Below, piece after piece: positions 2,356-6,177 of a DNA stretch of 6,177 nucleotides; positions within the stretch are counted from its first letter, which is position 1, and each line of letters opens with the position of its first letter. The position numbers and the translations under genes are program-made. The stretch comes from a virus, in IMG/VR virus record IMGVR_UViG_3300029815_000172, positions 1-6,177 of that record. One strand, given 5' to 3'. Below the pieces are notes generated by a model. It was not told the DNA's origin. It made no database searches and saw nothing but the letters and a program-made list of their open reading frames with translations.

Positions 2356-3489
2356 ATGGGATTCGGAAAATCATTTATAGCAGGATTAGGTTCCTCAGCA
2401 GCAAGTACAGGAATGGGGTTTGTCGGAAGTGCTTTAAGCCAAGCACTCGGATTAAGTTGGTCACCACAAAAAGCTATGAGAGAACAATGGAAGTACAATA
2501 AAAACATCATGGCTCTACAAAATCAATATCAACAACAAGCAGCCGCACAATCTCAACAATACGCCAAAGAATATTGGGATTACACCAATGCAGAAAATCA
2601 AAAACAACATCTTATCAATGCAGGCTTAAATCCTGCTTTAATGTACGGACAATCCGGAGCCGGAGGTATGGGAGCAAGTGGAGGAGCTCACCAAGCAGCA
2701 CCAGAACAACCGCAAGGAAATCCGGTAGGTATGGCTCTACAAGTACAGCAAATCGAACAGCAAAGAAGAATGAACGACGCTCAAATTGCATTAGCAGAAG
2801 CACAAGCCAGCAAAGCAAAAGAAGAAGCTAAAAAAATCGGAGGTGTGGATACACAGGAAGCCTTAAAACGAATTGAAGAAGCCGCTTCACGAATAGAACT
2901 TAATTTGAAAGAAGGTCATTATAAAGAGGCTTTAACAGAATTGACAAAAGCAGAAAAAGAGGCTACAAATGCACTGACATCTCTTAGAGAAATGCAAGAA
3001 GGCTTATCAAAAGCTCAAATAAGCGAAGCCTTTGCCATAGCAGGATATTATAGCGAAAAAGCTCACACAGAATATTGGAATAAAGAAAATGAAAAAATTC
3101 AAAACCAATATTTGAAAGATACCTACGAAGACAGGGTTGAAGCTGCAGCCTATAACAATGCAGTAGCCATAGCCTTAGCTGCAAAATATAAAAGCGACAA
3201 AGATGTAAATGAAAAACAAATAAAAAACCTTCAAGCAAATATCGAAGAATTACTAGCTCTTGCAGACAAGCATAATTGGGATAAAGAAACATATCGCAAA
3301 CAAGTAGAAGGTATGATTGAACGTTGGGAAGAACAAACCTTTAACGAGAGAATCGGATTAGGTCTGGAATTCGGAGACAAGATCATAGAAATGTTGCTCA
3401 AGGCGCGCGGAAAAAGAGCCAAGACAAAAACTGTATCTGAGAGACAAGGCAAAACTACAACAACAGAAACATATACAGAATCGTATTGA
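2356..3489 (+). CDS. VP2: Minor capsid / DNA pilot protein (VP2, phiX174 H-like), 377 aa.
   Basis: Gly/Ala-rich hydrophobic N-terminus MGFGKSFIAGLGSSAASTGMGFVGSAL; compare phiX174 H MFGAIAGGIASALAGGAMSKLFGG. A Q-rich low-complexity segment, the NAGLNPALMYG motif, a Gly-rich stretch, then a long K/E/A-rich predicted coiled coil. This is the architecture of microvirus pilot proteins. Follows the capsid module on the same strand. Stop TGA 3487-3489, two nt before the Rep ATG. Confidence 0.8.
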   Translation: MGFGKSFIAGLGSSAASTGMGFVGSALSQALGLSWSPQKAMREQWKYNKNIMALQNQYQQQAAAQSQQYAKEYWDYTNAENQKQHLINAGLNPALMYGQSGAGGMGASGGAHQAAPEQPQGNPVGMALQVQQIEQQRRMNDAQIALAEAQASKAKEEAKKIGGVDTQEALKRIEEAASRIELNLKEGHYKEALTELTKAEKEATNALTSLREMQEGLSKAQISEAFAIAGYYSEKAHTEYWNKENEKIQNQYLKDTYEDRVEAAAYNNAVAIALAAKYKSDKDVNEKQIKNLQANIEELLALADKHNWDKETYRKQVEGMIERWEEQTFNERIGLGLEFGDKIIEMLLKARGKRAKTKTVSERQGKTTTTETYTESY

Positions 3490-3490
3490 T

Positions 3491-4624
3491 ATGTGTCTAT
3501 ATCCTACTTTTGTTAAAAATCCAAAGTATAAACCTAACAAGAAAAATAAAGGGAACCCTCCTGTTTGTACAGACAGGAGGCTTCTCTACATACCTACAAA
3601 ATGCGGGTGTTGCATAGAATGCAGAAAGGAAAAACAACGAGAATGGAGAGTAAGATTAGAAGAAGAACTACGTACGAATTTTGGGTATTTCACTACATTG
3701 ACGATAAGCCCAGAAAAAATCAAAGAAATAGAATTAATCACCGGTTTAAAATGGGAAGAAAACCCAAACGAAATTGCAACAAAAGCTATAAGATTATTTC
3801 TAGAACGGGTAAGAAAAGATACAGGAAAGAGTATAAAACACTGGTGTGTTACAGAACTGGGAGAGAAAAAAGACAGAATACATTTACACGGTATATTCTT
3901 CGGCCAAAAAAGCGCAGAACTAATCAGGAAACATTGGAAATACGGGTTTGTGTTCATCGGGGGGTATTGTAACAGCAAAAGCGTCAACTATATGACAAAA
4001 TACATGCTAAAAGTCGATATCAAACACCCAGAATTCAAACAAATCGTACTAGCCAGTTCCGGAATCGGAGCCGGATATATGGATCGATTAGATTATTTAT
4101 GGCAAAAACAAAATTACAAAAACATCAATGTAGCTACCTATACATTCAGAAATGGTACAAAAATGGCTATGCCAAAATATTACAAAAACAAAATATTTAC
4201 CGACAAAGAACGTGAAAAGATGTGGATTAATAATCTCAATAGAGGTCTATTGTGGATATACGGAGAAAAAGTAAAAGCCGACGACTGGAAAACCATAGAC
4301 AATCTTAGAGAATATTGGCAAAGATACGGACGTGAAATAATGGGTGATAATCCTATCGCATGGAATGCCATGAAAGAAAGACGAAAAGAAGAAAAACAAC
4401 GACGAGCTATTGCAGAAGCTAAAAAACAAGCTGAAAAATTCAGCACGGAAATTCTAATAGGATTACCGTTACAGGCCGAATTTCCTATGCAGGAAAAAAA
4501 ACAAGAATGGGATAGTATCATAGAAGAATACATCAAATCCAACAAATGGACATTTGAAAGAGTGAGAAAGAGGTGCACGACCGAAGAGCACTATGACGCC
4601 TTGGGCAGGATTGGGATAGCTTGA
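3491..4624 (+). CDS. VP4: Replication initiation protein (VP4 / phiX174 A-like), an HUH rolling-circle endonuclease, 377 aa.
   Basis: RCR motif I GYFTTLTISP (about 3686-3715). Motif II (HUH) RIHLHGIFF (H-L-H at 3881-3889). Motif III with two catalytic tyrosines, VNYMTKYMLK (Y at 3989-3991 and 4001-4003; compare phiX174 A YVAKYVNK). N-terminal Cys cluster C26-x11-C38-x-C40-C41-x2-C44 (3566-3622), possibly a Zn-binding element. Confidence 0.92.
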   Translation: MCLYPTFVKNPKYKPNKKNKGNPPVCTDRRLLYIPTKCGCCIECRKEKQREWRVRLEEELRTNFGYFTTLTISPEKIKEIELITGLKWEENPNEIATKAIRLFLERVRKDTGKSIKHWCVTELGEKKDRIHLHGIFFGQKSAELIRKHWKYGFVFIGGYCNSKSVNYMTKYMLKVDIKHPEFKQIVLASSGIGAGYMDRLDYLWQKQNYKNINVATYTFRNGTKMAMPKYYKNKIFTDKEREKMWINNLNRGLLWIYGEKVKADDWKTIDNLREYWQRYGREIMGDNPIAWNAMKERRKEEKQRRAIAEAKKQAEKFSTEILIGLPLQAEFPMQEKKQEWDSIIEEYIKSNKWTFERVRKRCTTEEHYDALGRIGIA

Positions 4625-4635
4625 AATACTATCAG
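4625..4635. repeat. 11-bp direct repeat aatactatcag, copy 1, immediately after the Rep stop codon.
   Basis: Exact match to 4764..4774. The two copies bracket the GC-rich island. Confidence 0.8.
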
Positions 4636-4740
4636 ACAATAACCAGACTATATTTTTAATGTTTAAGGCGGAAAGTACTGCGTCCTTTCCTTGGTCGCTT
4701 CGCTCCATCAGTACGCTCTCGACGGCGGAGCCTGTTCGCT

Positions 4741-4759
4741 GTAAGCCTTGCAGGCTTGC
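4741..4759 (+). other. GC-rich hairpin. Stem aagcct / aggctt (6 perfect bp, extendable with G·T wobbles to 8-9 bp), loop tgc.
   Basis: Inverted repeat 4743-4748 / 4752-4757 read from the sequence. Sits at the 3' edge of the GC island, just before DR copy 2. Stable ssDNA hairpins are used as (-)-strand origins or packaging signals in ssDNA phages (established for phiX174/G4, inferred here). Confidence 0.4.
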
Positions 4760-4763
4760 GCGC

Positions 4764-4774
4764 AATACTATCAG
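4764..4774. repeat. 11-bp direct repeat aatactatcag, copy 2.
   Basis: Exact match to 4625..4635. Confidence 0.8.
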
Positions 4775-4804
4775 CGAGTGTTAAAAATGGTATTAGCATA
4801 TGTT

Positions 4805-4838
4805 AAAAGGGGATTTTTATTAGGAAAAAGGGGATTTT
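4805..4838. promoter_or_regulatory. Two exact copies of the 13-mer aaaaggggatttt (4805-4817 and 4826-4838), 21 bp centre to centre. Iteron-like or promoter-proximal regulatory repeats upstream of the small-ORF cassette and VP1.
   Basis: Direct repeat read from the sequence. A4-G4-A-T4 composition (A-tract/T-tract, likely DNA bending). About 40-70 nt upstream of the ATG at 4878. Confidence 0.45.
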
Positions 4839-4877
4839 ATCATTATCTTTACAGTGTAATCAAAAAAAAACAAAGTC

Positions 4878-5186
4878 ATGAAAACATTGTTAGTTTTAAA
4901 AAACACCGAAAGCAGAATTGCTGCAATTCGAGAATTTGAAAGCGAAAAAGAAGCCCTCAATGAGTGGAATCGCTGTTATCACAAACAAGCCTGGGAAATC
5001 GTTTATCTAAAAGAAAGACAGAAATCAGGACACAGATATGAATTAGAATATGCCAAATTTGATGAATGCGGGGAGCTATATTCAGGGTATATTATTTGTT
5101 TTTCCAAAAAAGAAGCCTTATATTTGAAAACTAAAATTTCAGAAATCAATTCAAGTTATTTATTTCGTATTAAAAAACTCTATTAA
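4878..5186 (+). CDS. Hypothetical protein, 102 aa. First gene of a small-ORF cassette.
   Basis: ATG 4878. Same strand as all other genes. Its stop TAA is 1 nt before the next ORF's ATG (translational coupling). No motif I recognise. Confidence 0.55.
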   Translation: MKTLLVLKNTESRIAAIREFESEKEALNEWNRCYHKQAWEIVYLKERQKSGHRYELEYAKFDECGELYSGYIICFSKKEALYLKTKISEINSSYLFRIKKLY

Positions 5187-5187
5187 C

Positions 5188-5406
5188 ATGAAAGAAGAAA
5201 TCAAACAGTTTCTAAAAGAGAATTGGAAAACAACAGCAAGTATTATAGGTGCAGCCATACTGCTAGCGCTATCTTACTTTATAGAAAGCTGTGGTAGTAC
5301 CTGGAAAATATCAGGAAATACCGTAAATGTAAATAATAAATGTAAAAATGATTCAATTACACATCACAATGATTCCAACTATAACGAAATACGGGAAATT
5401 CCGTAA
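5188..5406 (+). CDS. Small single-pass membrane protein, 72 aa. Candidate single-gene lysis protein (amurin/E-like) or other membrane-targeted accessory protein.
   Basis: Translation is MKEEIKQFLKENWKTTASIIGAAILLALSYFIESCGST followed by a polar Asn/Ser-rich tail. An 18-residue hydrophobic segment (TTASIIGAAILLALSYFI) follows a mixed-charge N-terminus, then a hydrophilic C-terminus. This is the overall architecture of phiX174 E-type lysis proteins (N-terminal TMD plus dispensable C-terminus). No endolysin or peptidase gene is evident elsewhere in the genome. Confidence 0.5.
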   Translation: MKEEIKQFLKENWKTTASIIGAAILLALSYFIESCGSTWKISGNTVNVNNKCKNDSITHHNDSNYNEIREIP

Positions 5407-5626
5407 AAAAGAATGGATAAAAACTGCCAAAATACCATTCGAATTATTCAGTGAAGGAAGTTATGCGCTTATGTGGGAAGGGTTCGAATGGGATACGGGC
5501 TGTATAGTAAAAGGTTTTAGAATTGTCATGAACTGCTGCCTCTTTAAAGAAGCAGAACAACTTGAAGACGAACTACGTAAAAGTAGAATTATATTAACAA
5601 GTATTGAAGCAATTAAAAACATGTAA
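5348..5626 (+). CDS. Hypothetical protein, 92 aa from ATG 5348 (85 aa if from ATG 5369). Overlaps the 3' end of the membrane-protein ORF in another frame.
   Basis: An open frame fills the otherwise non-coding stretch between 5406 and 5629. Its stop at 5624-5626 is 2 nt before the next ORF's ATG. The start codon is uncertain. Confidence 0.4.
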   Translation: MIQLHITMIPTITKYGKFRKKEWIKTAKIPFELFSEGSYALMWEGFEWDTGCIVKGFRIVMNCCLFKEAEQLEDELRKSRIILTSIEAIKNM

Positions 5627-5628
5627 TT

Positions 5629-5877
5629 ATGGACTTTCAAGAAGCATTAAAATGGGCAACCGATCAAGATGTTGTCAAAGTAACTTGTATCAAAGAAAAA
5701 GAAGACGACAAATTTATCTTTACCGTAGGACAATACAGTGTGTCTCCTCTTGTATTTGACAGTCAAGAAGAAGCTGAACAATACCTTAAAGAAAATTTCA
5801 GACTCACAAACCTAGACTTATCTATTATCGGCGCCATAAGCCAAAGACTTAATGAAATTAATAACGAAAAATTTTAA
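5629..5877 (+). CDS. Hypothetical acidic protein, 82 aa (net charge about -7).
   Basis: ATG 5629. Stop 5875-5877 is 11 nt before the VP1 ATG. Small acidic phage proteins often act as host-takeover or anti-restriction factors (generic knowledge, not a specific match). Confidence 0.5.
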   Translation: MDFQEALKWATDQDVVKVTCIKEKEDDKFIFTVGQYSVSPLVFDSQEEAEQYLKENFRLTNLDLSIIGAISQRLNEINNEKF

Positions 5878-5888
5878 AACAAAGAAAA

Positions 5889-6177
5889 ATGAAAGTAAGT
5901 ATCGGAAAAAACACCCTCGGAGGTGGTAAAAAAATGATGACACGGTTGAATAATTACAACCGTAGTACACATGATTTGAGTACAGTTGTAAGAACAACGG
6001 CGGCCGTAGGAACTTTAATACCAACATTGAAATTATTAATGCAACCTGGTGACACTTTTCCTATCGAGACCAGGTGTCACACATTAACACACCCAACGGT
6101 CGGACCATTGTTCGGAAGCTTTAAACAACAAAACGATTTCTTTTTCTGTCCTATTCGTCTATATAACGCAATGCTGC
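5889..6177 (+). CDS. VP1: Major capsid protein (VP1 / phiX174 F-like), 5' part. The ORF runs off the window end and continues in frame at 1..1859, because 6079..6177 duplicates 1..99. Full CDS is 5889 -> junction -> 1859: 2049 nt, 682 aa.
   Basis: ATG at 5889. The translation begins MKVSIGKNTLGGGKKMMTRLNNYNRSTHDLSTVVRTTAAVGTLIPTLKLLMQPGDTFPIETRCHTLTHPTVGPLFGSF. Compare the phiX174 F N-terminus (...HDLSH...TISTTPVIAGDSFEM...FTFYVPHRHVY): an HDLS motif, a Thr/Ala-rich segment, a GD(T/S)F motif, and FFCPIRLY against FTFYVPHRHVY. The frame is continuous across 6078/1, since 6078 is divisible by 3, and reaches the 609-codon ORF of the track. Confidence 0.9.
   Translation, partial: MKVSIGKNTLGGGKKMMTRLNNYNRSTHDLSTVVRTTAAVGTLIPTLKLLMQPGDTFPIETRCHTLTHPTVGPLFGSFKQQNDFFFCPIRLYNAML
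6079..6177. repeat. Terminal redundancy: exact copy of 1..99.
   Basis: As above. Confidence 0.95.

Follow-up and report, generated by a model that had tools for sequence, protein, structure and literature searches.

For microviruses outside the phiX174 group, the mode of host lysis is an acknowledged gap: these viruses have no E-like or other known lysis gene, only sporadic, horizontally acquired M15 peptidases (PMC7062461, PMC3394797, PMC9239249), and phiHBP1, the only cultured Bacteroides microvirus, carries an M15 peptidase (PMC13064476). IMG/VR record IMGVR_UViG_3300029815_000172, the 6,177-nt stretch of DNA analysed here in full (the window), raises this question. It comprises a 6,078-nt circular microvirus genome followed by a 99-nt terminal repeat and, as an earlier note made from the letters alone had observed, lacks a recognisable lysin; that note put forward a 72-codon open reading frame (ORF) as a candidate single-gene lysis or membrane effector. 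Here, we report that this ORF belongs to a previously unannotated, very abundant gene family with a fixed position in Bacteroidales gut microviruses, and that its product has several features of a small lipoprotein precursor. We then weigh the possibility that the predicted lipopeptide acts in lysis against other readings. Our literature search on microvirus lysis and lipoproteins found no proposal of a lipoprotein lysis gene in a microvirus.

The ORF starts with ATG, runs from 5188 to 5406 on the + strand and encodes 72 amino acids. We have almost no doubt that it is a genuine gene. At least 581 homologous protein clusters are found at E ≤ 0.01, mostly on contigs of about 6.1 kb, the best 120 of them at 81–93% identity, and the identical protein occurs on human-gut metagenome contigs of 6.1–6.5 kb as well as on one 12-kb head-to-tail dimer. 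The gene is carried by 22 IMG/VR loci, and gene order is identical in nine circular genomes. Pairwise Nei–Gojobori ratios of nonsynonymous to synonymous substitution (dN/dS) are 0.18 in the frame of the gene, compared with 0.45 and 1.07 for the two alternative frames. An unexpressed chance ORF in an AT-rich genome would have company, as the window holds many spurious ORFs of like length, but that reading has a negligible probability and is already refuted by frame-specific purifying selection (dN/dS of 0.10 over codons 1–53, with a proportion of synonymous differences, pS, of 0.51), by a frame and length kept in the 581 clusters, and by the fixed synteny. All copies of the family in the databases are unnamed or labelled ‘hypothetical protein’. 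The INPHARED phage collection yielded no match, either in a DNA search with the genome or by tblastn with the protein; named phage records hold remote members only, such as Dulem virus 224 (XCD03897.1), which was reached via its capsid protein. A scan of GTDB genomes for the 72-aa protein returned no relative.

This gene is also the only + strand ATG ORF of at least 30 amino acids in the window that contains a strongly hydrophobic 15-mer, and we are confident that its product is targeted to the membrane or the secretory pathway. Conservation, selection and the hydrophobic stretch thus bear out the earlier view of the ORF as real and membrane-targeted.

The protein has a clear anatomy (Table 1). 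The charged, amphipathic n-region, with lysines at positions 2, 6, 10 and 14 and a net charge of +1, is strongly conserved (dN/dS 0.05, pS 0.53) and has a hydrophobic moment of 0.5, a value that 6% of shuffled sequences reach. Behind it lies a hydrophobic stretch of about 16 residues (17–32), with Kyte–Doolittle maxima of 2.29 for the mean over a 15-mer (residues 18–32) and of 1.81 for a 19-mer (residues 17–35). The earlier note had described an N-terminal transmembrane helix of 18 residues; the hydrophobic helix is there, but it is not at the extreme N terminus, because the 16-residue charged segment precedes it. The segment of residues 17–34 is the least conserved part of the protein, with the highest dN/dS (0.25, against 0.05 in both flanks). 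Several homologues (L022, L027 and P0124–P0129) have its h-region swapped for an unrelated hydrophobic sequence, the only invariant helix positions are A17, I20, G21 and L25, and the helix holds no conserved proline. Selection is again strong in residues 35–53 (dN/dS 0.05, pS 0.60).

The region from residue 35 to the end is polar and 21% Asn, as had been noted, but its last 19 residues turn out to belong largely to another gene. Because residues 54–72 overlap the start of the downstream 92-aa gene, they show a pS of 0.017 and an apparent dN/dS of about 7.5 in the frame of the 72-aa gene, whereas dN/dS over the same stretch is 0.06 in the frame of the 92-aa gene. The distal Asn-rich tail is mostly a by-product of this overprinting and shows no selection of its own; the C terminus also varies in length, giving forms of 72, 77, 80 and 88 amino acids. 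Among relatives, mean identity to the window is 67% for the capsid protein and, within the 72-aa protein, 90% for the n-region, 74% for the helix, 90% for the core and 72% for the tail. AlphaFold2, run on a 121-sequence alignment, modelled helices at residues 2–11 and 13–32, with block-mean values of the predicted local distance difference test (pLDDT) of 73–88 over residues 1–30. A profile-versus-PDB search with the family gave only noise.

The helix is followed by a cysteine, Cys35, that is invariant in 121 of 121 aligned sequences and kept in all distant homologues. In each of 128 family members the residue before it is small (Ser in 90, Gly in 37, Ala in 1), and position −3 is hydrophobic in 123. 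The protein combines several features expected of a lipoprotein precursor: a positively charged n-region, an uncharged h-region within the 7–22-residue range, and a +1 cysteine that falls in roughly the first 35 residues and is preceded by a small residue at −1. An exhaustive profile search of 1.8 billion representatives added a few distant homologues, in which the h-regions are entirely different and the motif [GSA]-C-G-S-[TA]-W is always kept; their boxes read LSAC, IIGC, NLGC, TGSC, CAGC and PTGC, of which we count LSAC, IIGC and TGSC as canonical. About 10% of members overall, including L016 (Gly), P0101 (Ser) and P0129, have another residue in place of the second cysteine, Cys52. Because Cys52 is replaceable, a Cys35–Cys52 disulfide is not the reason for conservation, and we have down-weighted a disulfide-stapled hairpin on an uncleaved anchor, Cys52 having been lost in several members and Cys35 in none. 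Given an invariant cysteine with a preceding Ser, Gly or Ala directly after the helix, together with canonical boxes in the same-position genes described below, the product is probably a lipoprotein precursor rather than a membrane anchor like phiX174 E, with its processing predicted from sequence.

Related microviruses carry comparable genes at the same place. In 46 of 62 related loci, a small ORF encoding a hydrophobic helix, usually followed by a lipobox, starts about 435–800 nt (mostly 440–700 nt) upstream of the capsid gene, and a control search of 124 kb of capsid-gene sequence in all frames found only two such ORFs. The conservation of a small transmembrane ORF at this position, which the earlier note had raised, is therefore borne out, and conservation of the position outlasts that of the sequence. 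Genomes with 41–45% capsid identity have a 64–72-aa gene there, with the lipoboxes LGGC, LQAC, VQSC, AQSC, ITGC and GVSC. The related lipobox group numbers about 2,200 clusters; its cysteine is invariant (33 of 33) and is followed by T-M-S-[ML]-S-[IV]-x-K-N-N and a polar tail with an invariant D-S. More distant Bacteroidales microviruses, in prophages and metagenome-assembled genomes (MAGs), have 67–68-aa genes with LTSC or TTSC boxes, and a Paludibacteraceae prophage has a small lipoprotein gene (LTSC) next to its capsid gene. When hhalign was used to compare the family of the 72-aa protein with the related lipobox group, the cysteines aligned, at a probability of only 10%; position and architecture suggest that the two share a common ancestry. 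One contig, L058, holds two diverged copies of the small lipoprotein gene (95–295 and 6017–6217), adjacent across the contig ends, which represent either a tandem duplication or a mixed-strain assembly.

Two of the same-position genes, in L036 and L044 (about 45% and 43% capsid identity), match the NCBIfam model NF033879, ‘smalltalk protein’, with 50.6 and 29.6 bits (cut-off 24.7), and the Pfam model PF20096 (DUF6486) with 54.7 and 30.3 bits (gathering threshold, GA, 22.7); a group of the form MKITGNQW...VQSC reaches 23.0 bits, just below the cut-off. The NF033879 model, which has 29 positions, and PF20096 span only the n-region, the helix and [GAS]-Cys. Both describe uncharacterised, Bacteroidetes-associated small proteins with no assigned function, and a literature search turned up a single paper naming the ‘smalltalk protein’ and no mention of DUF6486. 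The gene in the window shares its genomic position and its order of modules (n-region, helix, [GAS]-Cys) with these genes; neither its product, searched in full or as residues 1–36, nor the 581-cluster family matches NF033879 or PF20096. One nr record in the DUF6486-matching group, P0177, is labelled ‘SPP1 phage holin’, the sole label of this kind. Pfam scans with HMMER of 33 members of its group and of the 72-aa protein detected no holin family, and we reject a holin reading, for which there is neither a holin-family profile match nor an endolysin in the genome.

The smallest forms consist of little more than the N-terminal part. Microvirus mar60 (L024, MZ089806.1) contains at 5927–6004 an unannotated 25-aa ORF, MKDWVKALLQAIAAAIGALLGGVSC, whose stop codon comes right after the lipobox cysteine, such that the mature product after processing would be a single lipidated cysteine. 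This ORF is tightly packed, its ATG directly following the upstream stop and the next gene beginning 6 nt past its own stop, and the ATG is preceded, 7 nt upstream, by a GGAGGTG motif. The ORF suggests that the signal-peptide module can be the functional unit; tblastn with the 25-aa peptide gave no match. More distant relatives have same-position ORFs of 28–46 amino acids with one hydrophobic helix and no lipobox.

We found no recognisable lysin gene in the genome. Searches of every ORF in the window against Pfam, PHROGs, NCBIfam and PADLOC detected no lysin, holin, spanin or defence family, and comparison of the family profiles of the neighbouring 102-, 92- and 82-aa genes with the PDB returned nothing relevant. 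About 80 relatives likewise lack a recognisable lysin. Because non-core ORFs in the related loci stay at or below about 130 amino acids, the exceptions being phiHBP1 and its one match, these loci conceal no gene of peptidase size. The capsid protein of phiHBP1 is only 23% identical to that of the window, and the peptidase-bearing microviruses compared (phiHBP1 and four ‘bajarodmic’ viruses) are too distant to show whether the small lipoprotein and M15 peptidases exclude each other, with T-rich alternative frames that yield many spurious hydrophobic ORFs. Distant microviruses with an M15 peptidase have ORFs of 33–44 amino acids with one hydrophobic helix and no lipobox (L107 3245–3367; L106, L108 and L109 at about 5265–5570), the one in L107 being an annotated 40-aa coding sequence flanked by the pilot and peptidase genes; such ORFs may encode holin-like partners.

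Relatives found through the capsid protein sit as integrated elements in Bacteroidales genomes, among them a Phocaeicola MAG (58% identity), Dysgonomonas macrotermitis DSM 27370, Dysgonomonas sp. 521 and a Paludibacteraceae MAG, so that the host is very probably a diderm bacterium of this order. For such a host we propose the following mechanism. The precursor, consisting of the n-region (residues 1–16), an h-region of 16–18 residues and a lipobox-like I/L/F-x-S/G-Cys35, would be inserted with its N terminus inside and its C terminus outside, lipid-modified at Cys35 and cut by signal peptidase II. The product would be a lipopeptide of about 38 residues on the periplasmic side, of which the first 19 (CGSTWKISGNTVNVNNKC-K) would be the constrained part. 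This lipopeptide would attack the host envelope from its periplasmic face to release virions, as a lipoprotein-type single-gene lysis factor and not as an E-like transmembrane inhibitor of MraY.

An envelope-attacking role is suggested because the genome encodes no muralytic enzyme and no envelope-targeted product other than this protein, and because the position of its gene is kept across the clade; it becomes the most economical explanation because, in addition, the mature core is near-invariant across divergent capsids. A core that stays about 90% identical while the capsid drops to about 67% would be more in keeping with a host target that is conserved than with a receptor that differs among strains. 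These circumstantial observations make a lysis function a serious, if tentative, possibility. The whole chain, ending in a lipoprotein-type factor acting alone from the periplasmic face, is a more doubtful proposition. The gene is thus still the best candidate for an envelope effector, as the earlier note had supposed; the E-like type of effector it had in mind is not supported, and overall its observation is confirmed and its interpretation partly supported.

The closest working analogy to the proposed factor is provided, in architecture only, by the colicin lysis proteins, or bacteriocin release proteins (Lysis_col). These are very small lipoproteins (mature form about 28–35 amino acids) that lyse cells alone, without a muralytic domain, and their stable signal peptide adds to lethality; they are plasmid-borne in Enterobacteriaceae and act via outer-membrane phospholipase A. 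Because a signal peptide contributes to their lethality, a colicin-like mode would rationalise both the conserved n-region and the short predicted lipopeptide of the microvirus. The likeness does not extend to sequence, as the 72-aa protein has no Pfam match to Lysis_col at E ≤ 1.

Several observations weigh against the proposed lysis lipoprotein. Position −2 is an atypical Glu in 104 of 128 members, and only 14 of the 128 pass a strict rule in the style of PROSITE PS51257. Conservation of the n-region equals that of the mature core, more than a disposable signal peptide would usually show; this may point to the uncleaved protein, or to the peptide itself, as the active species. AlphaFold2 predicts nothing with confidence after residue 35. 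The small ORF is missing from 16 of the 62 relatives, 7 of those loci having less than 900 nt of upstream sequence, and the closest integrated relative, L094 (Phocaeicola MAG CAZAUU010000012.1, about 3100–8500, 58% capsid identity), lacks the module of 102-, 72- and 92-aa genes. Finally, the protein shows no similarity to known lysis proteins, whether in Pfam and PHROGs at E ≤ 1 or in profile-versus-PDB searches.

Some of these points lead to an alternative in which the protein remains uncleaved, as a single-pass membrane protein with its N terminus inside and C terminus outside, or acts as a membrane-active peptide whose n-region and helix are the effector. The cysteine would then have another role, and the protein might even so serve as a lysis factor, a holin-like factor or a small membrane toxin; this is the alternative closest to the picture drawn in the earlier note. 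It would accommodate the Glu that breaks the canonical lipobox, the strongly constrained amphipathic n-region and an AlphaFold2 model with one long helix up to residue 32. The mar60 ORF, which ends at its cysteine and so implies that the part behind the cysteine can be dispensable, the 29-position ‘smalltalk’ model, which covers only the N-terminal part of the matching genes, and the lipobox-free ORFs of distant relatives all point the same way. Against it stand the strict restriction of position −1 to Ser, Gly or Ala beside an invariant Cys35 and the canonical lipoboxes of same-position genes in related genomes. The helix is, moreover, the least conserved part of the protein, whereas the low dN/dS of the 19 residues after the cysteine indicates that the extracytoplasmic part matters, and the 14–16-residue hydrophobic stretches of L022, L027 and L028 are short for a stable membrane span. 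On balance we consider an uncleaved protein somewhat unlikely.

The main rival to a lysis function is superinfection exclusion or receptor masking by a lipoprotein in the manner of T5 Llp and the Cor proteins of phi80, HK022 and N15. The lipopeptide would block the outer-membrane receptor or entry route of the phage itself, shielding infected or carrier cells and sparing progeny from inactivation on debris. Its predicted architecture, that of a small, phage-encoded envelope lipoprotein with a lipobox and a short mature part, is that of the known exclusion lipoproteins; some relatives in the clade are prophages, including the Paludibacteraceae prophage with a small lipoprotein gene beside its capsid gene, and carrier-state superinfection immunity is documented in another microvirus (PMC7062461). 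The mature parts of Llp and Cor, however, are folded domains of about 60 amino acids, in contrast to a core of about 19 constrained residues here, and neither PHROGs nor Pfam reveals any similarity to them (the best PHROG for the 72-aa protein is phrog_557, at E = 0.07). A receptor blocker would be expected to track variation in capsid and receptor, yet the core is near-invariant among viruses whose capsids are 61–73% identical. Exclusion genes are usually sporadic accessories, whereas this gene keeps its position in most genomes of a 6-kb virus, and the one close integrated relative, in Phocaeicola, is without it. We judge exclusion to be unlikely.

A further group of readings assigns the protein a function unrelated to lysis or exclusion, as a membrane tether in replication or assembly, as a modulator of host-envelope physiology during carriage, or as the precursor of a signalling peptide released from a lipoprotein signal sequence. 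That the family is unannotated everywhere, that the n-region is conserved and that minimal forms of the ‘smalltalk’ type exist would all be compatible with such roles. No positive evidence favours any specific one of them, and they would leave lysis unassigned in a 6-kb genome; we regard them as distinctly improbable.

The earlier comparison with phiX174 E and other amurins is not supported. The 72-aa protein resembles E as a small one-helix protein encoded by a microvirus without a lysin, which makes it a candidate single-gene lysis factor, and this size, helix and lack of a lysin are all that speaks for an E-type amurin whose helix inhibits MraY or another membrane enzyme of the lipid II pathway (MurJ). 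No sequence relationship or lysis-family match was detected in Pfam or PHROGs. Gene E is embedded in gene D, whereas the gene studied here is free-standing between the 102-aa and 92-aa genes, with only its last 59 nt overlapping, and is not embedded in a scaffold gene. In E, the transmembrane helix is the conserved functional determinant and the C-terminal part is dispensable; in the 72-aa protein, the helix is the most variable part, exchanged for unrelated hydrophobic sequence in homologues and devoid of a conserved proline, a lipobox-like cysteine comes next, and the segments under constraint flank the membrane on its two sides. An E-type amurin is accordingly very improbable.

Spanins, of the Rz1 type (o-spanins) or as u-spanins, share with the 72-aa protein the small lipoprotein format (mature Rz1 has about 40 amino acids), overlapping genes and a phage lysis context. 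Unlike them, the protein has no partner bearing an N-terminal membrane helix, no C-terminal membrane helix and no proline-rich mature region, and its genome has no endolysin to complement. We reject a spanin reading: no other hydrophobic + strand ORF could be the i-spanin partner, the C terminus is polar, and no endolysin or holin domain is present.

Table 1 Features of the microvirus genome and of the 72-aa ORF, in window coordinates
Feature	Position	Strand	Remarks
Major capsid protein gene	5889 across the junction to 1859	+	PHROG major head protein, E = 4.5e-36
112-aa gene	between capsid and pilot genes	+	
Pilot protein gene	2356–3489	+	
Replication initiator gene	3491–4624	+	Pfam REP_ORF2-G2P
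Gap of about 250 nt	4625–4877		between replication initiator and four small genes
Four small genes (102, 72, 92 and 82 aa; the 72-aa gene is the one studied here)	after the gap	+	
102-aa gene	4878–5186	+	directly upstream of the 72-aa ORF
TATATTTG, Bacteroidetes-type −7 promoter-like motif (TAnnTTTG)	5119–5126	+	about 69 nt upstream of the ATG of the 72-aa ORF, inside the 3′ end of the 102-aa gene
72-aa ORF, predicted small prolipoprotein	5188–5406 (stop codon included)	+	conservation, synteny, dN/dS 0.18
Residues 1–16, MKEEIKQFLKENWKTT	5188–5235	+	charged amphipathic n-region (net +1), predicted cytoplasmic helix
Residues 17–34, ASIIGAAILLALSYFI then I-E-S	5236–5289	+	hydrophobic h-region, then lipobox-like residues
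Cys35	5290–5292	+	predicted lipidation and cleavage site (+1 Cys of lipobox)
Residues 35–53, CGSTWKISGNTVNVNNKCK	5290–5346	+	conserved core of predicted mature lipopeptide
Residues 54–72, NDSITHHNDSNYNEIREIP	5347–5403	+	polar tail, dual-coding with next gene
92-aa gene, +1 frame	5348–5626	+	overlapping; start codon within codons 54–55 of the 72-aa ORF; 25 loci, 91% mean column identity
82-aa gene	5629–5877	+	just upstream of capsid gene

All genes of the window lie on the + strand (Table 1). The 92-aa gene, which starts with the ATG at 5348 and overlaps the 72-aa gene by 59 nt, is extremely conserved, with 41 invariant columns including an NCC motif, and is confined to the 25 loci that have a lipoprotein of the CGS[TA]W type. 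It has no family, PDB or structure match, and an AlphaFold2 model of its product from the single sequence (pLDDT 37) was useless; it seems to be a clade-specific gene that has overprinted the lipoprotein gene at its tail. In the 102-aa family only H52 and Y102 are invariant, and several relatives contain two tandem, diverged copies of the gene (L010 3640–4255, L011 3311–3926, L016 833–1451 and L022 4631–5250). No other small gene of the clade is as widely conserved as the 82-aa gene; it is found unannotated in 71 loci with the motif FxxTxGxY...EEAExY, and probably encodes a core structural or assembly protein. In the Phocaeicola MAG, the integrated microvirus L094 sits between a SusE/F-like surface lipoprotein gene and upp, and carries an 82-aa homologue together with capsid, pilot and Rep genes.

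The gap downstream of the replication initiator gene is the sole sizeable non-coding stretch of the genome. It is richer in GC than its surroundings and contains short, imperfect inverted repeats (4670–4690 and 4736–4777); in all contigs, gene callers place a minus-strand ORF of 45–47 amino acids in it (4656–4799). The gap may be an origin or a regulatory region rather than a gene. A search against Rfam gave no match in the window. The promoter-like motif upstream of the 72-aa gene extends, in its fuller form TTTG...TAnnTTTG, over 5095–5126; within the window alone it is not significant, since 93 of 200 shuffled sequences reach it. TAnnTTTG recurs 69–74 nt upstream of the start of the gene in 13 of 23 loci, a recurrence that may reflect coding conservation of the upstream gene (KKEALYLK motif), and we treat the motif as a lead only.

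These analyses turn a single ORF into a defined and abundant family with a clear anatomy, made up of a conserved n-region, a variable helix, an invariant lipobox cysteine and a 19-residue core. The 581 clusters of this type and the roughly 2,200 of the related lipobox type all lie on contigs of roughly 6 kb. It is possible, though less likely than not, that this family and the other same-position lipobox genes, present in thousands of related gut microviruses, constitute a new class of single-gene lysis systems in which a tiny lipoprotein, or its conserved signal-peptide module, kills Bacteroidales from the membrane or periplasmic side; the missing lysis function of non-phiX microviruses would then be accounted for, and a new envelope target in Bacteroidota would come into view. 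Should the protein prove lytic, it would be the first single-gene lysis protein of the lipoprotein type and could serve to probe an essential envelope process of Bacteroidota; as an exclusion factor, it would instead be the first described in this virus group. The question of how these microviruses lyse their hosts is now directly testable.

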